A stretch of DNA of 13,797 nucleotides from a virus (UHGV-0117953); one strand, 5' to 3'. Positions 1-12,367 are shown, counted from the stretch's first letter. Made by a program: numbers and translations. Notes: generated by a model from the letters alone, not told the origin.

Positions 1-44
1 GATGGTTGAGAGGGTTGCAGGGTAGTAGATAAGTTTTAGATAAC

Positions 45-70
45 AAAAAACCCATTTATGTAAACGGGTT
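45..70 (-). terminator. possible intrinsic terminator, minus-strand orientation
   Basis: Plus strand 45-68 is aaaaaa-cccatttatgtaaacggg. On the minus-strand RNA this folds as CCCGUUUA / UAAAUGGG (one G-U pair) followed by UUUUUU; it does not fold as well in plus orientation. Confidence 0.3.
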
Positions 71-74
71 AATG

Positions 75-108
75 AAAACAATAAGTTAGATTAAAAACAA
101 TAAGTTAG
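75..108. repeat. perfect 15-bp direct repeat aaaacaataagttag (75-89 and 94-108)
   Basis: Two identical 15-mers 19 bp apart in an AT-rich non-coding leader; a related agataagtt is at about 28-36. Possible recombinase arm-type or regulator binding sites. Confidence 0.4.
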
Positions 109-514
109 GTTGGTGGTCAGTGGTGGTTATTACGGGGTAATGCCAACCGCTGCCGCCACTTTGTCGCCACTGTGTTATCGTTCTGGCCTTACTTTGAAGG
201 TAATGGGCCTTTCTCCTCTAACTTACTCTGTGTTCCGTATATCTTTAACTCCTTCAAAAGGACTATGCCATATTACTGTTGCTGGGTGCGGGGAGCTTTT
301 TTAACCTACCTCCAAGAATCGGGGCACATGAACGCACATGTAGAACAACCGCTAAGTACCGCGAGTGGTCATCTTGCTATTTTTTTTGTAGCTCAAAAGG
401 TCTAAAATGGCTCCTTAACTATTATGAGATTGCGCGTGATATATAATAGTAAATCAGAGAATTTTAAAGTCTTAGGTTACATTATATTAACTTTTTTTGA
501 ATGGAATGATATAA

Positions 515-1267
515 ATGGCTGAATACGATAATCACCCATGTTTTCCTCAACCTAGTTCAGATGATATTTCCCTGTGGAAATATATGGATTTTACTAAATT
601 CATGGCATTAGTCACGTATCAAAAAATTTTTCTATGTCGATCTGATCTCTTTGATGATCCTTATGAAGGAACATTCCCAAGAAAAATTATAGAATATGTA
701 CATAATATGAATGAAAGCGACATTGATGAAACTATCTCTGAGTACATCAAGCAGGTGTATAATTTCAACAAGTATGTAAGAAAACATACTTATATAAGTT
801 GTTGGCATGCAAATGAGTTTGAGTCAGCAGCGATGTGGGATCTCTATAGTAAGAATGATGCTTCCGTTGCAATCGAAACCACTTATGCAGAAATAAAAAA
901 TCTATTACCGCCGGAAGCTATGATTGGCTTGGTTAAGTACATTGATTATGATAAGGATGTATTCCCGCTTGATAATACATTTTATCCTTTTACTCATAAA
1001 AGAAAATCATTCGAGCATGAGAGAGAAGTAAGGTTTTTAATTCAAAACTTACCTATCACTGCTGAGGGTACTAGCTTGGATTTTAATAATGCTGTAGCGC
1101 CAAATGTTATTCCGATTGATGTTGATGTTAGTTCATTTGTTAAAAAAGTCCATCTGTCTCCCCGCGCACCTGAATGGATGCTGAATTTGTTAAAAGACAT
1201 TGTGACTAAGTATTCAATAAATGTTGAGGTTAGGCGTTCTAATTTATACATTTCCCCAATTTACTAA
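515..1267 (+). CDS. hypothetical protein, DUF2971-like N-terminal signature
   Basis: 250-aa ORF with ATG start, roughly 35% GC. N-terminal LWKYMDFTKFMALVTYQKIFLCRSDLFDDPYEG resembles the DUF2971 pattern (aromatic-K/H-Y ... hydrophobic ... F/N-D-P-F/Y-E-G) as I recall it. Converges on the integrase 3' end. Confidence 0.6.
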   Translation: MAEYDNHPCFPQPSSDDISLWKYMDFTKFMALVTYQKIFLCRSDLFDDPYEGTFPRKIIEYVHNMNESDIDETISEYIKQVYNFNKYVRKHTYISCWHANEFESAAMWDLYSKNDASVAIETTYAEIKNLLPPEAMIGLVKYIDYDKDVFPLDNTFYPFTHKRKSFEHEREVRFLIQNLPITAEGTSLDFNNAVAPNVIPIDVDVSSFVKKVHLSPRAPEWMLNLLKDIVTKYSINVEVRRSNLYISPIY

Positions 1268-1437
1268 ACGGTAACCATAATTAAGTGATTATAGTGCTGG
1301 AGGATATTCTCTTTTAAAGGGAATGTCATCCGGTCTGTAATATTTGCAAATTAACACAATATGGTTGGAAAAGGCCAAATAATTCTCGGGTAGTTGCATA
1401 GTGAAGTATTGAATCCCATAAACGGCCCACAATTTAC

Positions 1438-2487
1438 TTAATCGGGGAGCATATCATTAGCTTCGGTATGCTGTGTGGGCATTGTAGATAATGGATTGTA
1501 GTGTAGCGCTGTATTAAGGTGATCCGGTGCAAGATGAGCGTAACGCATTGTCATTTTTATATCGTGATGTCCGAGGATTTTTTGCAAAGCAAGGATATTT
1601 CCACCCGACATCATGAAGTGCGCCGCAAACGTATGGCGCAGAACGTGTGTCAGTTGACCGCGAGGGAGCACGATAGACGTTTTTTCCATCACGGATAAAA
1701 ATTGAAAATAGCAGTCTGTGAAGAAATTGAACCCATCAAGCGCCATGATCTCTTCGTAAAGCTCTTTACTGATAGGGATGCTTCTGTTTTTCTTCCCCTT
1801 CGTTCTTACAAAGGTAATTCGGTATTTGGTCACCTGTGATCGGGTAAGGTTTATTGCTTCTCGCCAGCGTGCGCCTGTGCTTAAGCATATCTTGACTACC
1901 AGTGCCAGAATTGGGTCCTGACGTTTGCAATCAGCCAGCAATTCAACAATCTGCTCATGGGTAAGCCATGCCATCTCTTTTTCTGCGATGGTGAATTTTC
2001 GCATGTTCTCCAGTGGGTTTGGATACGACCATTCGCCCAGGCGGGATAGTTCGCTAAAAACACTACTTAGATAGCTTTGCTCCAGGTTAATAGTGACCGG
2101 GCTTGCTCCTTTCTTCCATTTCTCGCTGAAGTAGATCTCTCCTGTCAGGCGTTTATCTCGATAGTGGGCAAACATTTTAGAGGTGAGATCGGTTGCAAGG
2201 GGATTGCCAAGAGCGTCAACCATCAACAGCAATTTGTCATAAACATGCTGCCCAGCAGTCAGAGATTTACCATGTAGTTTGAACCATAGCTCAACCACGT
2301 CTTTCAATGTCCGACGATCCACTGATTCGCCCAGCCAGGGCTTTGCTTCTATTTCCCCCATGGTGTATCGCTCGAAGGCCAGTGCTTCGCCTTTGGTGGC
2401 GAATTGTTTACGCACACGACGCCCACTTCGTCCGGCGGGGTAACATTCGCAAAGCCATTTCCCTGTGGTGAGTTTTCGTACTGCCAT
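1438..2487 (-). CDS. int: tyrosine integrase (phage integrase family)
   Basis: N-terminus MAVRKLTTGKWLCECYPAGRSGRRVRKQFATKGEALAFE is typical of P2/186-type integrase arm-binding domains. C-terminal HVLRHTFA and LGHHDIKMTMRYAHL give the R..H..RH and catalytic Tyr boxes. Start moved to ATG 2487, which has GGAGGG 8 nt upstream; the track start at 2643 has no RBS. Confidence 0.9.
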   Translation of the reverse strand: MAVRKLTTGKWLCECYPAGRSGRRVRKQFATKGEALAFERYTMGEIEAKPWLGESVDRRTLKDVVELWFKLHGKSLTAGQHVYDKLLLMVDALGNPLATDLTSKMFAHYRDKRLTGEIYFSEKWKKGASPVTINLEQSYLSSVFSELSRLGEWSYPNPLENMRKFTIAEKEMAWLTHEQIVELLADCKRQDPILALVVKICLSTGARWREAINLTRSQVTKYRITFVRTKGKKNRSIPISKELYEEIMALDGFNFFTDCYFQFLSVMEKTSIVLPRGQLTHVLRHTFAAHFMMSGGNILALQKILGHHDIKMTMRYAHLAPDHLNTALHYNPLSTMPTQHTEANDMLPD

Positions 2488-2675
2488 AAAAAATGCCCTC
2501 CAGTAGAGAGCATTTTCACTGTATGTATAACCAGTGTCAATGTATGAAATCCTACGACCATACATCTCACTGAAGCCATAATTAAGTTGGCTATTCTTTT
2601 TGCTATGTGAGCATGTAACTTTTGCGGTTAACCTGCGGCTCATTTTTATTTTAGGCGCAGATATAAAAGCAAAAG

Positions 2676-2867
2676 TTATCGTGAGTTTTTAGTACAGATT
2701 TTTTTGGATTTACTAATAGTTCCATCATTGCAAACGAATTTGCCATCTGAGGTACAGTGAGAAACACCTCCCTTTTTCCCTGAACAGGGATAATTTCTAG
2801 CATAGGTAGTTAGTGGGTTTAATAACAAAGAACATGACAAAACCACAAAAAATACCTTACCAAGCAT
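2676..2867 (-). CDS. small secreted Cys-rich protein (signal peptide plus 4-Cys mature peptide)
   Basis: 63 aa. [23 protein letters not shown] looks like a Sec signal peptide; the mature part has 4 Cys and many Lys. Strong RBS GGGAGG 5 nt upstream of ATG on the minus strand (plus 2874-2879 cctccc). Confidence 0.45.
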
Positions 2868-2882
2868 AGTTTCCTCCCGGTA

Positions 2883-3452
2883 CTATTTAACATACTTGAC
2901 TGTTAAACTTATAATTTTACCAATTATTTCAATGTCTTCTATCTTGCATTCGAAGGCTCTGTTTCCACCCTCGACGAAGATTCTTCCACCGGGTAAACGA
3001 GTAATGTCACGGATCGTTATTTCGCCATCAATACTTATTACCCATTTACCATCACGTATATCATCAAATTCCTTATCACAAATAAATTCAGAATTATTAT
3101 CTGTGATTACAAAAAGATTCTTGAATGCCGACGGTAGAAATTCTCTATCGAAAATATAAAAACCGTCTTCACACAAAGCCCCATCAGATAATACATATTT
3201 AGCAACTTCCATAGTATTTGTATTACCTGAAGTTTGCTTTGAACCATGCCCGGTTGTGAGCCAATTAAGCGAAGTGCCTGTTTCAAGGGCGCACTGGATT
3301 ACCCATTCTGCTGGGAATGAGTCACGCATGTAGCGTGTGGCGAGTGTACTTTTAGAGATTCCTAAATGATCGCACAACGCCTGTCGAGTCTTGAATCCAT
3401 AAGCTTCTACCATGCGCTCTATAGCGCCTCGTCCGCCTTTCTCCAAATTCAT
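2883..3452 (-). CDS. cI: CI-type immunity repressor (186/P2-like prophage repressor)
   Basis: N-terminal HTH-like segment TRQALCDHLGISKSTLATRYMRDSFPAEWVIQCALETGTSLNWLTTG. Sits at the immunity position, divergent from the early operon and co-directional with int. ATG at 3452 has GGAG 5 nt upstream; the track start at 3458 is GTG. Confidence 0.75.
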   Translation of the reverse strand: MNLEKGGRGAIERMVEAYGFKTRQALCDHLGISKSTLATRYMRDSFPAEWVIQCALETGTSLNWLTTGHGSKQTSGNTNTMEVAKYVLSDGALCEDGFYIFDREFLPSAFKNLFVITDNNSEFICDKEFDDIRDGKWVISIDGEITIRDITRLPGGRIFVEGGNRAFECKIEDIEIIGKIISLTVKYVK

Positions 3453-5930: not shown

Positions 5931-6784
5931 GCACCATCCTGAAATGGGCGGGAAATAAAACCACCATAATGTCCGAACTGAAAAAACATCTTCCTGCTGG
6001 CCCGCGACTGGTTGAACCTTTCGCGGGTTCCTGTGCTGTGATGATGGAGACGGATTATCCCAGCTATCTGGTTGCGGATATTAATCCTGATTTAATCAAC
6101 CTCTATAAAAAGGTTGCCGCTGATTGTGAATCGTTTATATCTCGCGCCAGAGTTTTATTTGAGATCGCAAACAGGGAGGTGGCTTATTACAACATAAGGC
6201 AGGAGTTTAATTACTCAACTGAAATTACTGATTTCATGAAAGCGGTATATTTCCTGTATCTCAATCGTCACGGTTACCGTGGTTTATGTCGCTATAACAA
6301 GAGCGGGCATTTCAACATTCCCTACGGTAATTATAAAAATCCGTATTTCCCTGAAAAAGAAATTCGCGCATTTGCAGAAAAGGCCCAGCGAGCAACGTTT
6401 ATCTGCGCCAGCTTTGATGAAACGCTGGCGATGTTGAAGGCGGGGGATGTGGTGTATTGCGATCCGCCGTATGACGGTACGTTTTCCGGCTATCACACTG
6501 ACGGCTTCACTGAAGATGACCAGTATCACCTGGCATCTGTTCTTGAACATCGGTCATCAGAAGGACATCCGGTCATTGTTTCTAACAGTGACACATCCCT
6601 GATCCGTTCGCTGTATCGCAATTTTACTCACCACTACATCAAGGCAAAACGCAGCATCGGTGTGGCAGCTGGCGAGGGTAAATCAGCAACAGAAATCATT
6701 GCTGTTTCCGGGCCGCGCTGCTGGGTGGGATTTGATTATTCGCGTGGCGTGGATAGTTCTGCCGTGTACGGAGTACGTGCATGA
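5927..6784 (+). CDS. dam: DNA adenine methyltransferase (Dam family)
   Basis: [12 protein letters not shown]-terminus, FAGSCAV AdoMet motif and catalytic DPPY at 6461-6472. Start set to ATG 5927 (GGAGG 6 nt upstream; overlaps the upstream stop). The track start at 5867 is an upstream extension. Confidence 0.9.
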
Positions 6785-9195
6785 GTCATGCCGATATGAA
6801 CAACTGCTGCGGCTTTAACGAAGCTGCCGCATCGTTCTCATGGAACAGCCCGAAAAAGGCCATTAACCCTTATCTGGACCCGGTGGAAGTTGCGCCGGTT
6901 TCTACGCTTTCAAACCTGATCACTCTGTACGCTGCCGATAACGAGCAGGAACAGCTGCGCCGTGAGGCGCTGAGTGATCAGGTCTGGGAGCGTTATTTCT
7001 TTAATGAATCCCGTGATCCTGTCCAGCGCGAAATGGAACAGGATAAGCTCATTAGTCGGGCAAAGCTGGCGCATGAGCAGCAGCGTTTTAATCCGGATAT
7101 GGTCATTCTGGCGGACGTCAACGCCCAGCCTTCCCATATCAGCAAGCCGCTAATGCAACGTATTGAATACTTCAGCAGCCTGGGCAGGCCAAAGGCTTAT
7201 TCCCGCTATTTACGTGAGACGATTAAGCCATGTCTGGAACGACTGGAGCATGTACGCGACAGTCAGCTATCTGCATCTTTTCGCTTTATGGCAAGCCATG
7301 AAGGGCTGGACGGCCTGCTGATCCTGCCTGAAATGAGTCAGGATCAGGTGAAACGCCTGTCCACCCTGGTAGCTGCGCATATGAGTATGTGCCTTGATGC
7401 CGCTTGTGGCGATTTGTATGCCACCGATGACGTTAAGCCAGAAGAAATCCGCAATACATGGGAAAGGGTGGCAGCGGAAACCCTGCGTCTGGATGTCATC
7501 CCGCCTGCGTTTGAGCAACTCCGTCGGAAAAGAAACCGCCGTAAACCCGTGCCCTATCAACTCATTCCGGGTTCGCTGGCGCGTATGTTGTGCGCCGACT
7601 GGTGGTATCGGAAATTATGGAAGATGCGTTGCGAATGGCGGGAAGAGCAGTTGCGTGCTGTCTGCCTTGTCAGCAAAAAAGTATCTCCCTATGTCAGCTA
7701 TGAAGCCGTGTTGCATAAACGTGAGCAGCGCCGTAAGTCGCTGGAGTTTTTCCGTTCTCATGAACTGGTGAACGAAGACGGCGACACGCTGGACATGGAG
7801 GATGTGGTAAACGCCAGCAGCAGCAACCCTGCGCATCGCCGCAATGAGATGATGGCCTGTGTTAAAGGTCTGGAGCTTATCGCGGAAATGCGCGGTGACT
7901 GCGCCGTTTTCTACACCATCACCTGTCCGTCACGTTTCCATTCCACGCTAAATAACGGCAGACCAAACCCGACCTGGACAAACGCGACGGTAAGACAAAG
8001 CAGTGATTATCTGGTCGGCATGTTTGCTGCATTTCGTAAAGCGATGCACAAAGCCGGATTGCGCTGGTATGGCGTGCGGGTGGCTGAGCCGCATCATGAC
8101 GGTACAGTTCACTGGCACCTGTTGTGTTTTATGCGCAAAAAAGAGCGCCGAGCCATTACTGCTTTGTTGCGTAAGTTTGCCATTCGTGAAGACCGCGAGG
8201 AGCTGGGTAATAACACGGGACCACGCTTTAAGTCTGAGCTGATAAACCCGCGCAAAGGTACGCCAACAAGCTACATCGCGAAATACATCAGTAAGAACAT
8301 TGACGGGCGTGGTCTGGCTGGTGAGATCAGCAAGGAAACGGGTAAATCCCTGCGTGATAACGCTGAATACGTTAATGCCTGGGCGTCTCTACATCGTGTT
8401 CAGCAATTCCGCTTCTTTGGCATTCCGGGGCGTCAGGCTTACCGTGAACTGCGATTGCTGGCTGGTCAGGCGGCAAGGCAACAGGGGGACAAAAAAGCAG
8501 GTGCGCCGGTACTGGATAACCCGCGCCTTGATGCCATCCTGGCTGCTGCTGATGCTGGTTGTTTTGCCTCCTACATCATGAAGCAGGGCGGCGTACTGGT
8601 TCCCCGTAAATATCACCTCATCAGAACCGCTTATGAAATCAACGAAGAGCCGACCGCCTATGGCGATCACGGCATTCGTATTTATGGCATCTGGTCACCC
8701 ATTGCAGAGGGCAAGATCTGCACTCATGCAGTGAAGTGGAAAATGGTTCGTAAAGCCGTTGACGTTCAGGAGGCGGCAGCCGACCAGGGCGCTTGCGCCC
8801 CTTGGACTCGTGGCAATAACTGTCCCCTTGCTGAAAATTTGTACCAACAAGGGAAAGACAAATCAGCTGATGGAGATACCAGAACGGATATCACCCGTAT
8901 GGATGACAAGGAGTTGCACGATTACCTGCACAGTATGAGCAAAAAAGAGCGCCGGGAACTGGCAGCAAGGTTACGCCTGGTGAAACCGAAACGGCGTAAA
9001 GACTACAAACAGCGAATTACAGACCATCAACGACAGCAGCTCGTCTATGAACTGAAGTCCAGAGGATTTGATGGCAGCGAGAAAGAGGTCGATTTACTCC
9101 TTCGCGGCGGCAGCATTCCGTCAGGAGCAGGCCTGCGTATCTTCTATCGGAACCAGCGTTTGCAGGAAGATGATAAGTGGCGGAACCTGTATTAA
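6781..9195 (+). CDS. A: replication initiation endonuclease (P2 gpA-like HUH rolling-circle initiator)
   Basis: 804 aa. HUH-type motif H-W-H at 8110-8118 and two-tyrosine motif Y-I-A-K-Y at 8272-8286, comparable to phiX174 gpA Y-V-A-K-Y. Position after dam as in P2/186 early operons. ATG overlaps the dam stop (ATGA). Confidence 0.85.
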
Positions 9196-9289
9196 TTACG
9201 CGGATTAACAATTCGTGCTCTTAATAATACCAGGCATATCAGGCTGATGAACGTAAAAAAACGTTTTACATCAGTAAGATTATTATATA

Positions 9290-9305
9290 CTGTAAATATA
9301 AACAG
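9290..9305 (+). promoter_or_regulatory. LexA box (SOS operator) CTGTAAATATAAACAG
   Basis: Matches CTGT-N8-ACAG with an AT-rich centre. It lies in an AT-rich promoter-like stretch about 45 bp upstream of the RBS and ATG at 9349. Confidence 0.6.
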
Positions 9306-9348
9306 TGGTTATGCATACAGCATTGCTTGTGGTGTTATAGGAGGAAAG

Positions 9349-9537
9349 ATGCAGGACTATTTTTTGGAGTCTTTGAAGCTCCAGCGCATTGATTTTTTTC
9401 TTAAGCTTGTAGCGGCTAGTGAGTGTAGTGATGAAGAGAAGGGGCTGGCTCTGCAGTGGGTTTCTGAATTGACTGATGAACTCATGGCAAAAATCAGAAC
9501 CCACGAATACAACCGCTCAATGGATGTCATCAGCTGA
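9349..9537 (+). CDS. small SOS-operon protein (possible Tum-like N-terminal module)
   Basis: 62 aa from ATG 9349 with AGGAGG at 9339-9344. The track start at 9247 would run through the promoter and LexA box. Immediately followed by the DinI-like gene. Confidence 0.45.
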   Translation: MQDYFLESLKLQRIDFFLKLVAASECSDEEKGLALQWVSELTDELMAKIRTHEYNRSMDVIS

Positions 9538-9547
9538 GGTGACTTTT

Positions 9548-9781
9548 ATGCGCATTGAAATAATGATCGATAAAGAGCAGAAGATTAGCCAGTCTACACT
9601 GGACGCCCTTGAATCCGAGCTTTACCGCAATCTGCGCCCCCTGTATCCCAAAACGGTAATTCGTATCCGCAAAGGTAGCTCTAACGGTGTGGAACTGACC
9701 GGACTGCAACAGGACGAAGAAAGAAAACAAGTGATGAAAATTATGCAGAAGGTGTGGGAAGACGACAGCTGGCTGCATTAA
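9548..9781 (+). CDS. DinI-like protein (phage Tum/DinI family)
   Basis: 77 aa: MRIEIMIDKEQ...LDALESELYRNLRPLYP...IRIRKGSSNGVELTG...KQVMKIMQKVWEDDSWLH parallels E. coli DinI (MRIEVTIAK...ETWESADDWF). GAGGTG RBS 5 nt upstream of ATG 9548. Confidence 0.75.
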   Translation: MRIEIMIDKEQKISQSTLDALESELYRNLRPLYPKTVIRIRKGSSNGVELTGLQQDEERKQVMKIMQKVWEDDSWLH

Positions 9782-10051: not shown

Positions 10052-10267
10052 ATGTCAAGCATCGCCGCATTTAGCCTGGGTAACCCAGTTGAACGTCTGG
10101 CAAGGGTTCTTAAAGAGAACCAGGACAAACTCAATCTTAGTAAAGATGGTTTTGTGTCCGTAGACTTGTCTAACAAAAGAGCAATGGATGCCATCAAGGC
10201 ACAGATGGATAAGCTTGAAGGCATCAAAACGAGCACTGTAAAAGAGAAAACTAATAGAACCAGATAA
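10052..10267 (+). CDS. small soluble protein, first gene of a coupled two-gene cargo operon
   Basis: 71 aa, ATG with GGGGGAG RBS. Helical and charged. Its stop overlaps the start of the next gene (TAATG). Confidence 0.5.
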   Translation: MSSIAAFSLGNPVERLARVLKENQDKLNLSKDGFVSVDLSNKRAMDAIKAQMDKLEGIKTSTVKEKTNRTR

Positions 10268-11109
10268 TGGCAACATTACTTTTAGCAGTGATTTTGGTTA
10301 GTGGTTTTATTTATGTAAACCTATCACTTTCAACAAGATACCGATATAAGCGTTCCAACGGCTGGGACGCTTATTTTTTTGTGGCTGCCTGGGGTATCGT
10401 TTTTTTTCTCCTTGGCGGTTTTTTCACCTTTATTTTGAACGTCAGCGGAGGGTTTCGTTGGCTGGCTAATGCCTTGAATCTAACACCTGACAGTTTTAAT
10501 GGCATGTTGTCTTCATCGAAAGACAAACTTCAAAGAATAAATGAAATCAAACAGATAGCATGGGTTATGATTTCAATTGTCCTCGCTGCGATTTCAGGTT
10601 TTGGAAATAAGTTACGCACATCACGTGGAGATCGTCGCTGGGATGCCTTAGCTAAAGCTGTGGGTAATAACGCTTTCGAATCATTACTTATGGAAGCGTC
10701 CGCAAGACAGTTTCCGATCATAGCAACTCTGTCGTCTCGCAAAATCTATGTTGGCCTTGTTACTTGTCCGGCGTTAGAAAACGGGCTTTCAGAGCACCTT
10801 GAACTTCTCCCGATGTTAAGCGGATATCGGGATAAAGATGATCTAACGATTAGTATCACGACTAACTATCACCAACATTATCTTGATAGTGGTGTGATAA
10901 GTGGAATGTCTCGGCTTAATATCGAAGATTTCCGTGTGCTCATACCAAAAGATGAGGTTGAAACAATTTCGTTTTTTGATACTGAGACATATAACAAATT
11001 TAAAGAAAATGAAGCCAGGGATAGAAAGAACTGTCGAAAGATTGGTAGTAAAAGTGCATCTTCGCGCAGCAAGCGTGCAGCAGATGCTGAGTCAAATGAT
11101 CGTGCATGA
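10267..11109 (+). CDS. membrane protein (3 predicted TM helices plus about 170-aa C-terminal domain), function unknown
   Basis: 280 aa. Hydrophobic segments at about residues 4-21, 35-57 and 96-112, followed by a soluble charged domain. Lower GC than the flanking phage core. Translationally coupled to the 71-aa ORF. Confidence 0.65.
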   Translation: MATLLLAVILVSGFIYVNLSLSTRYRYKRSNGWDAYFFVAAWGIVFFLLGGFFTFILNVSGGFRWLANALNLTPDSFNGMLSSSKDKLQRINEIKQIAWVMISIVLAAISGFGNKLRTSRGDRRWDALAKAVGNNAFESLLMEASARQFPIIATLSSRKIYVGLVTCPALENGLSEHLELLPMLSGYRDKDDLTISITTNYHQHYLDSGVISGMSRLNIEDFRVLIPKDEVETISFFDTETYNKFKENEARDRKNCRKIGSKSASSRSKRAADAESNDRA

Positions 11110-11362: not shown

Positions 11363-12367
11363 ATGACAGACGAAGAATTAAAAGAACAGCATTCAATTTA
11401 CGGCTCAGTTGCGGAATTGTTCAGACGAGTTATGGTTGAGCAAATTGATGTTATTTTGTCGGAGAATAAATTGTCTTTAGGGGTTCCAATTGAAAGCCGT
11501 GTCAAAACATTAAGTTCTATTATTAATAAGGATAACCGAAAACCTCTAAAGATTGAGTCAATAGTTGACTTGGATGATTATGTTGGAATCCGATTAATAA
11601 TGCTATTTAAGCGAGATGTTGAAAAGGTTATATCTTGTCTGAAAGAACATTTCATTATTTTGAAGCAAGAGAATAAACTTGATGAACTGGATGAGGATAG
11701 ATTTGGGTACCAATCTCATCATTATGTAATACAACCTCCAGAAGAATGGCTAAGAGTTCCATCCTTTAGTGATTTTAAAAATATGAAAGTGGAGGTGCAA
11801 ATACGAACGCTTTCTCAGCATATTTGGGCTGCAGCATCTCATAAACTGCAATACAAAAAAGAGCAAAGTGTTCCACTTCCTCTTAGGCGAGCAATTAATA
11901 GAGTATCTGCTTTGCTTGAAGTCGTTGATTTCGAATTTGAAAGAGTGTTATCAGAGCGTGAGGGGTATGTTGAGACAAGCAGACTAGATAGAGGAACTAT
12001 GCTTGACGTAGAATTGCTGAAAATGATAGCTGCAAGTGAATTACCACCTGATAATAAATCTGATGATGAAAATTATGATGATTTGCTTTCTGAATTAATT
12101 AAAAATAAAATTATAACTGTAGGTGAGTGTATTGACGCTTTAAAGAGTGGGCTACCTTCGGCTATTGACGAAGATAAGGCAATGGTTAGAAGAATTATAA
12201 GTAATGAAGATGACTATGATGATGAGTCTGAGTTAAAGCGTGCTAGGTTAGGGGTGTTTTTCACTCATGTAGGGTTAATTCGGACTGCGATTGCTAATTC
12301 TATGGGGGCTTCTTATATTAGAAATCAGACCGAAGGAATGGATGTTTATGATGATTCAGAAGAATAA
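11363..12367 (+). CDS. RelA/SpoT-homolog nucleotidyltransferase (toxSAS-like) with an acidic C-terminal domain
   Basis: 334 aa, about 30-38% GC. Synthetase-fold motifs: R46-x-K48...S...K, D-x-x-G75-x-R77 (11585-11593), G-Y-Q-S-H-H (115-120), E-V-Q-I-R-T (11792-11809) and H-I-W-A-A-A-S-H-K-L-Q-Y-K. C-terminal roughly 150 aa are strongly acidic with no Cys cluster. Own AT-rich promoter region and AGGT RBS. Confidence 0.8.
   Translation: MTDEELKEQHSIYGSVAELFRRVMVEQIDVILSENKLSLGVPIESRVKTLSSIINKDNRKPLKIESIVDLDDYVGIRLIMLFKRDVEKVISCLKEHFIILKQENKLDELDEDRFGYQSHHYVIQPPEEWLRVPSFSDFKNMKVEVQIRTLSQHIWAAASHKLQYKKEQSVPLPLRRAINRVSALLEVVDFEFERVLSEREGYVETSRLDRGTMLDVELLKMIAASELPPDNKSDDENYDDLLSELIKNKIITVGECIDALKSGLPSAIDEDKAMVRRIISNEDDYDDESELKRARLGVFFTHVGLIRTAIANSMGASYIRNQTEGMDVYDDSEE

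Follow-up and report, generated by a model that had tools for sequence, protein, structure and literature searches.

A predicted ADP-ribosyltransferase-fold gene inserted between the attachment site and the integrase of a P2/186-like Escherichia coli prophage: a candidate single-gene anti-phage defence

The DNA analyzed here, 13,797 nucleotides of the virus UHGV-0117953 (the window; all positions are counted from its first nucleotide), is the left part of a P2/186-like (Peduoviridae) prophage of Escherichia coli, with genes for an integrase (int), the CI repressor, CII, Fil, a Dam-type methylase, the gpA replication endonuclease, DinI and the portal protein; the remaining late genes of the P2/186-type prophage are seen in E. 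coli strain J2. Near the left end of the window, positions 515–1267 (+) hold an open reading frame (ORF) for a stand-alone, DUF2971-like protein of 250 amino acids (aa) that has a predicted ADP-ribosyltransferase (ART) fold and matches PDC-S31, a candidate defence family of PADLOC. A sequence-only reading had described this cargo gene as a 250-aa ORF with the signature LWKYMDF...LFDDPYEG in AT-rich DNA, ending 170 bp from the integrase stop codon, and both descriptions are borne out. The product begins with MAEYDNHPCF and carries the two motifs at residues 20–26 and 45–52, respectively, and the GC content of the ORF is 34.3% (29.6% at third codon positions) compared with 47% in int, 53% in gpA and 45% over the entire window. 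The stop codon of the gene at 1265–1267 (+) converges on that of int at 1438–1440 (−), with a spacer of 170 bp between them.

The left boundary of the prophage can be placed to the nucleotide. Window positions 1–55 are 100% identical to E. coli K-12 downstream of rcdA, and the identity ends at 55/56 inside the 3' end of the small RNA gene rybB. The attL core, the 14-bp sequence AACAAAAAACCCAT at 42–55, is flanked by host DNA on its left (the 3' end of rcdA, then the 3' tip of rybB) and by phage DNA on its right. The direct repeat that the sequence-only reading had proposed to look for is present: strain J2 shares this left end and has a second copy of the 14-mer AACAAAAAACCCAT at attR, after ogr and before intact rybB and ybjL. 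In addition, attL has been annotated in Klebsiella phage 4LV2017 at the position equivalent to that in the window. The P' arm of attL (56–171) matches both Klebsiella phage 4LV2017 and the cassette-free prophages at this site with 99% identity; it contains tandem 18-bp repeats at 75–92 and 94–111 and a 22-bp motif at 148–169 that is found again in the P arm at attR, all of which are candidate arm-type sites for Int. By these alignments, the prophage is delimited by the 14-bp core, and the position of the cargo gene to the right of the P' arm, between the att site and int, places it inside the att-delimited prophage. Between the two alternatives that had been offered for the gene, cargo at the attachment-site end of a prophage therefore stands, while a neighbouring island does not, since host identity stops at 55, the next segment (56–171) is a phage arm and the core is repeated at attR. 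The gene is also not a conserved host core gene: just 13 of the 5,426 complete E. coli genomes have it.

The integration site attB is the 3' end of rybB (2480–2558 of K-12 locus L005, 10525–10620 of strain J2 locus L103, equivalent to window 36–123). The 14-bp core spans the end of the U-tail of the rybB terminator, so that rybB is rebuilt intact at attR; at attL, a terminator-like hairpin at window 49–70 (−) is supplied by the phage. A tRNA gene as the integration site was rejected, as no tRNA was found. Strain B-1109 (locus L006, NZ_CP117971.1 3515090–3529156) was rejected as the reference for attR in favour of strain J2, owing to a truncation of its prophage by IS1 and a duplication of the host genes on either side. 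In B-1109, IS1 cuts the prophage within the methylase gene and the host block rcdA-ybjJ-ybjI-ybjH is present twice, on both sides of the remnant; the int-side cassette described below has there outlived most of the phage.

The cargo gene is part of an inserted cassette of 1,305 bp (172–1476, 35.7% GC) without counterpart in cassette-free relatives, where 16 bp stand instead. In one such cassette-free prophage (locus L002), int directly follows the P' arm, and the last 13 int codons plus the stop codon lie within the arm. This ancestral 3' end of int persists in the window as a relic at 130–171 (−) that is detached from int and encodes SGDKVAAAVGITP followed by a stop, identical to the last 13 residues and stop of the L002 Int. 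The live int gene at 1438–2487 (−) encodes a P2/186-type tyrosine integrase of 349 aa according to RefSeq (the mechanical ORF extends up to 2643; Pfam Int_N 3e-32, Phage_integrase 1.4e-21). Its product matches the cassette-free Int up to ...NPL(S/A)T(M/L)P, after which a 12-residue tail, TQHTEANDMLPD plus stop, replaces SGDKVAAAVGITP plus stop; the cassette thus supplies the last 12 codons and the stop codon of live int (1438–1476). We read this anatomy as one recent illegitimate insertion in which the att arm was spared, a dispensable C-terminal tail of Int was replaced, and the cassette was since carried with the phage. If so, the locus documents how a temperate phage can gain cargo between att and int, with the dispensable integrase tail sacrificed and replaced and the att arm left intact. 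A 6-bp CTGTGT is present at each cassette junction (169–174 and 1467–1472). A transposon origin of the cassette is unsupported: a search for terminal inverted repeats or a target-site duplication gave only the shared CTGTGT, which is 6 bp long and may be due to chance.

In all 13 carriers among the 5,426 complete E. coli genomes, the cassette is at the same site with 99.5–99.9% identity. These carriers are isolates from human, mutton, chicken, pig, monkey, river water and wastewater, and their cassette-carrying prophages vary in their other cargo. The encoded protein is identical in the two carrier genomes whose annotation was read (WP_000852814.1, which RefSeq names ‘DUF2971 domain-containing protein’). 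The cassette DNA has no match in 50,697 phage records, and a search of 72,556 plasmid records returned only two matches of ∼110 bp with 72–75% identity, both in Bacillus homologues of the ORF and none in the flanks.

Upstream of the gene, the cassette has a non-coding leader of 343 bp (172–514 (+)) with a terminator-like hairpin and T-run at 361–377 and a perfect TATAAT at 442–447. Three small ORFs overlapping the leader (110–304, 172–405 and 279–446) were rejected as genes, as they match no Pfam family and are not conserved with other copies of the cargo gene. The leader itself is not common to the gene copies in other elements, where DNA homology extends from ∼486–495, some 25 bp ahead of the start codon, up to the stop codon. 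An Rfam scan of window 1–3000 for an RNA antitoxin or regulator gave no match at E≤1. Downstream of the stop codon, an imperfect hairpin at 1284–1340 (+) in the convergent spacer is a possible terminator or transcript stabilizer, although the terminator scan did not call it. The RNA of 1262–1400 (+) folds at −35.6 kcal/mol (z = −3.26), and none of 200 shuffled sequences folded equally well. The scan called no canonical intrinsic terminator on either strand of the spacer (1268–1437), and its strong hairpin is on the + strand only. With no canonical terminator called there, a leftward cI-int transcript could read through antisense into the ART-like gene, or the reverse could occur.

ORF 515–1267 is a genuine gene and not a chance ORF, because its dN/dS is low (0.077 against a homologue with 83% aa identity and 0.14 against one with 72%) and because its homologues are many. 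A word-indexed search with the 250-aa protein found 524 homologues, and a profile built from 55 homologues matches 13,865 clusters at 50% identity, 4,775 of them at E≤1e-30, out of 1.84 billion representatives searched. By the two substitution ratios, the gene is under strong purifying selection.

The assignment to DUF2971 made in the sequence-only reading holds in part. The match of the window protein to Pfam PF11185 (DUF2971) scores 21.6 bits with E 5.9e-4, which is 0.4 bits below the gathering threshold of 22.0, and the same weak match is present in 52 of the 55 homologues; a search of NCBIfam with the window protein gave no match. On the other side, BLASTP aligns the protein end to end (residues 17–245, 23% identity, E 8e-12) with the Klebsiella plasmid protein WP_004902235.1, which passes PF11185 at 32.2 bits and shares DDPYE, CW, AMW and KRxxFxHExExR with it. 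PADLOC model PDLC04993 (PDC-S31) matches residues 15–247 of 250 over profile positions 12–236 of 245 at E 3.6e-23, with weaker matches to three sibling models, and phrog_34615 matches at 1.4e-59. The same reading had called DUF2971 uncharacterized, which is out of date: the family has since been classed as a new predicted ART family near DarT, AbiGi and Tox-ART-HYD1 (PMC12522546). That study also describes Lsan_0116, found in bacteria and archaea, with an active-site logo of R/K (motif I), [SC]WH (motif II) and ExE (motif III), and keeps it separate from canonical DUF2971, which is of a modified H-Y-E type, while distant homologues of both overlap (PMC12522546). The 55 homologues of the window family carry the same R/K - [SC]WH - ExE pattern, and the two resemble each other in bacterial and archaeal spread, as compared by the published logo and not by sequence. 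They differ in that Lsan_0116 was published as comprising mostly secreted effectors, which the contexts found for the window family do not support. From these matches, we place the window protein in a peripheral R-[SC]WH-ExE subfamily at the edge of Pfam DUF2971, which explains its borderline Pfam score. It belongs to PADLOC PDC-S31 and, more widely, to the ART-like assemblage of DUF2971 and Lsan_0116.

A sequence-profile search of the PDB returned only two chance-level matches (E 0.24 and E 1) and no DarT, and the fold was therefore reached through a predicted structure. The AlphaFold2 model of the window protein, built with the 55-sequence alignment, is compact and globular, with a predicted local distance difference test score (pLDDT) of 90.4 and a predicted template modeling score (pTM) of 0.87. 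A Foldseek search with the model places six DarT entries on top (best E 3e-4, probability 1.0, TM-scores 0.38–0.49), and with two structural methods DarT, which modifies DNA, and Tpt1, which modifies RNA, come out as the nearest folds. The predicted structure has the core fold of ARTs. Compared with the DarT core, the model has large helical inserts (residues 56–91) and an extra C-terminal α/β module of about 55 residues (∼195–250). This module and a conserved N-terminal segment (HPCFxQP), both outside the DarT core, might speculatively serve in regulation.

ARTs are recognized by three motifs: an R or H at a strand end (I), S-x-S/Y at a strand end followed by a helix (II), and (Q/E)xE at a strand start (III). 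In the model, R42 is at the end of strand 37–42, C96-W97-H98 is at the end of strand 92–99 with helix 105–111 following, and E169-x-E171 leads into strand 171–177. We propose that these residues occupy the canonical places of motifs I, II and III, respectively. The residues that are invariant in the 55-homologue alignment include R42, D44, D48, E51, G52, W97, H98, E103, S104, W108 and Y111, as well as K162, R163, S165, F166, H168 and E169, while C96, E171 and R173 are at least 90% conserved. All invariant family residues are intact in the window protein.

Two features bear on what such an enzyme would modify. A conserved basic patch, K162-R163-K164, immediately precedes ExE in a region that would correspond to the target-recognition loop of ARTs. 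In addition, 9 of the top 150 profile hits have an N-terminal extension, and all nine extensions contain AP2 DNA-binding domains. These homologues (P0146, P0153, P0181, P0189, P0197, P0208, P0256, P0261 and P0264; 377–456 aa) have one or two N-terminal AP2 domains joined to a complete ART-like domain in which the CWH, ESAAMW and KRxSFxHExE motifs are intact. Because the nearest folds are DarT and Tpt1 and because AP2 fusions recur, we propose a nucleic-acid target, probably DNA by analogy. The AP2-fused relatives provide a direct, testable handle on substrate choice.

Of 185,579 species genomes, at least 468 have a member of the family; the range extends from E. coli to methane-cycling archaea, with relatives in free-living Dehalococcoidia, Acidobacteria and cyanobacteria and hundreds in ordinary chromosomal contexts. 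Close copies are found in a variety of mobile elements: an 83% identical copy in a lambdoid prophage adjoins a pair of RNase-A-like toxin and CdiI immunity genes, a 72% copy is near type IV secretion genes in a Dickeya integrative and conjugative element (ICE), a 70% copy has an AbiJ/Abi_C gene as its neighbour in the gpS-gpV interval of a Serratia P2-like prophage, and a 66% copy is accompanied by a HEPN_Toprim_N gene in the hotspot on the int side of a P4-like satellite. The copy in Shewanella MR-1 adjoins insertion sequence (IS) transposases, and more distant relatives are carried on 245 plasmids. Among 50,697 deposited phage genomes, only one has a sequence homologue, and ten uncharacterized phage proteins in BFVD have the same fold at E<1e-3. 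All-against-all clustering of four genes per side at 77 loci of different species found no conserved partner gene, with no family in more than six loci. A Pfam scan showed no macrodomain or NADAR among the 25 commonest neighbour families, and none is encoded in the window. By these comparisons of neighbourhoods, the window gene is solitary, partner-free cargo of mobile elements.

In the Serratia marcescens P2-like prophage (loci L010–L012, ∼6100–9700), an AbiJ_NTD5/Abi_C protein, the 70% homologue and a 254-aa protein without Pfam match stand in a row, and the trio between gpS and gpV forms a compact multi-gene cargo island within the tail gene block. WP_004902235.1 of a Klebsiella pneumoniae IncFIB/IncL-M plasmid (locus L104, 4947–5702) is near a DUF1778/GNAT toxin–antitoxin pair and directly upstream of an EcsC-family gene; it is probably behind most of the 178 Klebsiella plasmid matches, as every Klebsiella match sampled has the same alignment span.

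A connection with defence was suggested only weakly in the sequence-only reading, and it now has the PDC-S31 match, Aristaios (PMC11381338), the int-att hotspot (PMC13586616) and the Abi_C and HEPN_Toprim_N neighbours in its favour, with the anti-phage role of the gene itself being a prediction. Aristaios, encoded on a Lactococcus plasmid (pUCCL641_199, DUF2971, 316 aa), was shown by experiment to be a single-gene, Abi-like anti-phage system; it interferes with phage transcription and was reported to have an ART fold (PMC11381338). Compared by description and not by sequence, the window gene is like Aristaios in being a single gene with a DUF2971 domain, a predicted ART fold and carriage on a mobile element, and is unlike it in belonging to another phylum, in length (250 compared with 316 aa) and in its sub-threshold score compared with a canonical Pfam DUF2971. 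In the plasmid tblastn search, neither the ten commonest organisms nor the matches listed include Lactococcus.

DarT is the toxin of DarTG and ADP-ribosylates thymidine or guanosine in single-stranded DNA (Pfam PF14487). In contrast to it, the window protein has no detectable sequence similarity to DarT, aligns structurally at TM-scores below 0.5, and has the helical inserts and extra C-terminal module described above; its motif set of R, CWH and ExE is probably also distinct from that of DarT. Membership by sequence in PF14487/DUF4433 was not found, as the protein has no Pfam match other than DUF2971 at E≤0.01; likewise, at E≤1 the commonest Pfam families matched by the 55 homologues include none besides DUF2971. 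Also unlike DarTG, the cassette holds a single real ORF; the window encodes neither a DarG macrodomain nor a NADAR antitoxin, and no partner recurs at the 77 loci. Because both the DarT sequence signature and an antitoxin are lacking, we do not consider the protein a DarTG member, and we propose by analogy that it works like DarT or Aristaios.

The PDC systems of PADLOC are 145 predictions made by ‘guilt by embedding’ in BREX, DISARM or type I restriction–modification (RM) loci. The window gene resembles PDC-S31 in being a single-gene candidate with a full-length match to the hidden Markov model, and differs in being embedded in the att-int junction of a prophage, not in BREX, DISARM or type I RM. 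According to a 2026 survey (PMC13586616), P2-like phages have 3% of their defence systems in the int-att interval, a minor hotspot for such genes, and both the P4 int-side and P2 tail-gene hotspots hold close homologues of the window gene. In contrast to the recurrent exchange of a hotspot, this phage lineage has one cassette in 13 genomes, which we take as a single event, and the cassette went into the reading frame of int, not into an intergenic gap. The fold prediction, the candidate-defence label and the hotspot location are already known from the literature and databases. New here are the exact anatomy of the insertion into int, the proof that the cassette is inside the att-delimited prophage, the single-gene, partner-free distribution of the subfamily over multiple elements, and the AP2 fusions as a clue to a DNA substrate.

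Taken together, we lean by a modest margin toward the gene being a single-gene, DarT-like, antitoxin-free abortive-infection system with which the lysogen is defended against other phages. The cassette would have been inserted once, between the P' arm of attP and int of a temperate P2/186-like phage whose integration site is the 3' end of rybB, and it would travel with the phage genome because of that position. The analysis shows the gene, its location within the prophage, the anatomy of the insertion, the fold, the conserved residues, the distribution as a solitary mobile gene and the AP2 fusions. Expression in the lysogen, enzymatic activity, a DNA target and an anti-phage phenotype are what we infer beyond these: the enzyme would be made in the lysogen and be harmless until another phage infects, whereupon it would use nicotinamide adenine dinucleotide (NAD+) to ADP-ribosylate nucleic acid, most likely DNA as DarT does. 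Replication or transcription of the phage would then be blocked, as in abortive infection, with no separate antitoxin involved.

Several observations weigh against this proposal. An antitoxin-free DarT-like enzyme would need some other means of avoiding self-intoxication. No consensus promoter was called in the leader (172–514) by the promoter and terminator scan, and expression in the lysogen is a prediction. The TM-scores to DarT are just 0.38–0.49, at sequence identities of 3–10%, and the motif assignment rests on secondary-structure position and the published logo. At position 42, the AP2-fused relatives have R, Q, N or H and Klebsiella WP_004902235.1 has Q; given this variability among relatives, R42 may not be essential. 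PDC-S31 is itself a predicted candidate. The neighbours in distant genomes include many housekeeping genes, and defence genes make up only roughly a dozen of 144, a rough tally since it was taken from lists of the top 25 families in which one protein may match several models. These defence neighbours (type III RM, TIR, caspase, SIR2, PD-Lambda-1 and BstA) are scattered, and with the signal being this weak, systematic defence enrichment was rejected and the defence argument does not rest on it. In addition, R-S-ExE ARTs classically modify arginine in proteins, which argues for a protein target.

The last point leads to the alternative that survives best, one in which the abortive-infection role is kept and the chemistry is different: the enzyme would ADP-ribosylate a protein, for example an arginine of a replication, transcription or translation factor of host or phage, or would only hydrolyse NAD+ and thereby deplete it. 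A protein target is a serious rival given that ExE is classically found in arginine-specific protein ARTs, yet both structural methods rank the nucleic-acid-targeting DarT and Tpt1 best, the domain found repeatedly in fusions is AP2, which binds DNA, and the basic KRK patch stands before the catalytic ExE. We consider this alternative unlikely, while giving it more weight than any of those that follow.

Improbable, in our judgment, is that the gene serves the phage or element itself, as a host-takeover or anti-defence ART or by modifying DNA against restriction. The T4 proteins Alt, ModA and ModB are ARTs that act on RNA polymerase and provide a model for host takeover. Carriage by phages, a satellite, an ICE and plasmids would agree with such a role, as would the ten BFVD phage proteins with the same fold, and AP2 fusions would suit a sequence-directed marking of DNA. 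However, the gene is at the att end and is transcribed away from the early and late operons of the phage, has the AT-rich composition of a moron and its own hairpin, and belongs to a PADLOC family derived from genes embedded in defence systems. The hundreds of homologues in ordinary bacterial and archaeal chromosomal contexts and the single homologue among the deposited phage genomes also argue against it.

A role as the toxin of an addiction module that stabilizes the prophage has a somewhat lower probability still. Its antitoxin, an unrecognized RNA or small ORF, would have to lie in the leader of 343 bp or the spacer of 170 bp, and the closest fold, DarT, is indeed a toxin–antitoxin toxin; the leader is unexplained and has small ORFs of 55–77 aa, and the 3' region is structured. 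Nevertheless, neither leader nor spacer is conserved with any other copy of the gene, no neighbour family recurs over the 77 loci, macrodomain and NADAR genes are missing from both the 25 commonest neighbour families and the window, and the Rfam scan gave no match.

There is little to favour an inert passenger, in which case the gene, acquired horizontally, would be kept silent, for instance by H-NS acting on its AT-rich DNA, and would at present be functionless in E. coli. The lack of a called promoter, the 34% GC and the rarity of the cassette (13 of 5,426 genomes) would fit silencing, and are countered by a protein identical in the two carriers read, a cassette 99.5–99.9% identical in 13 of 13 carriers from diverse hosts, intact invariant residues and strong purifying selection across the family; the other cargo also varies between carrier prophages, and the cassette has therefore survived recombination. 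Least probable is a secreted virulence effector that ADP-ribosylates a eukaryotic host target, for which a bulk Legionella prediction calling 80% of Lsan_0116 and 18% of DUF2971 proteins effectors (PMC12522546) and the type IV secretion genes beside the Dickeya copy are outweighed by relatives in free-living Dehalococcoidia, Acidobacteria, cyanobacteria and methane-cycling archaea, by the Dickeya secretion system being part of a conjugative element, by other close homologues residing in prophages and a satellite, and by a compact globular model with no signal peptide or obvious translocation domain.

If the proposed antitoxin-free defence of the lysogen is true, a very common family (the 13,865 clusters above) gains a biochemical activity and a biological role, and ADP-ribosylation of DNA or RNA serves immunity without a dedicated reversing enzyme, which raises the question of how self-damage is avoided. 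A broader generalization, which we put forward only tentatively, is that the ∼250-residue family (R-[SC]WH-ExE, PDC-S31) comprises widespread antitoxin-free DNA ADP-ribosyltransferases that act as one-protein immune sensor-effectors, with the AP2 variants sent to specific DNA sequences. DarT-like chemistry would then have escaped from the toxin–antitoxin format and been spread by phages, satellites, ICEs and plasmids across bacteria and archaea.

The window holds further cargo away from the att-int interval. The gpA-portal (old/tin) hotspot has two cargo genes. The first, at 10267–11109 (+), encodes a 280-aa predicted membrane protein (phrog_3630), and the second, at 11363–12367 (+), a 334-aa RelA/SpoT-type nucleotidyltransferase (Pfam RelA_SpoT 7.6e-20, PADLOC candidate PDC-S33 1.8e-16). 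An identity of the latter with CapRel was rejected, as its best PDB matches are small alarmone synthetases, with no CapRel at E≤0.01. This pair is found together in just one of the 5,426 complete E. coli genomes, which is not one of the 13 carriers of the int-side cassette; two cargo modules, each of them rare, thus meet in the window. A 63-aa ORF at 2676–2867 (−), located between int and the CI repressor, has a signal-peptide-like N-terminus and corresponds to the RefSeq hypothetical protein WP_000900883.1. The int-cI gap holds other cargo in related phages, such as a 558-aa ‘chromosome segregation ATPase’ in phage vB_EcoM-813R9.

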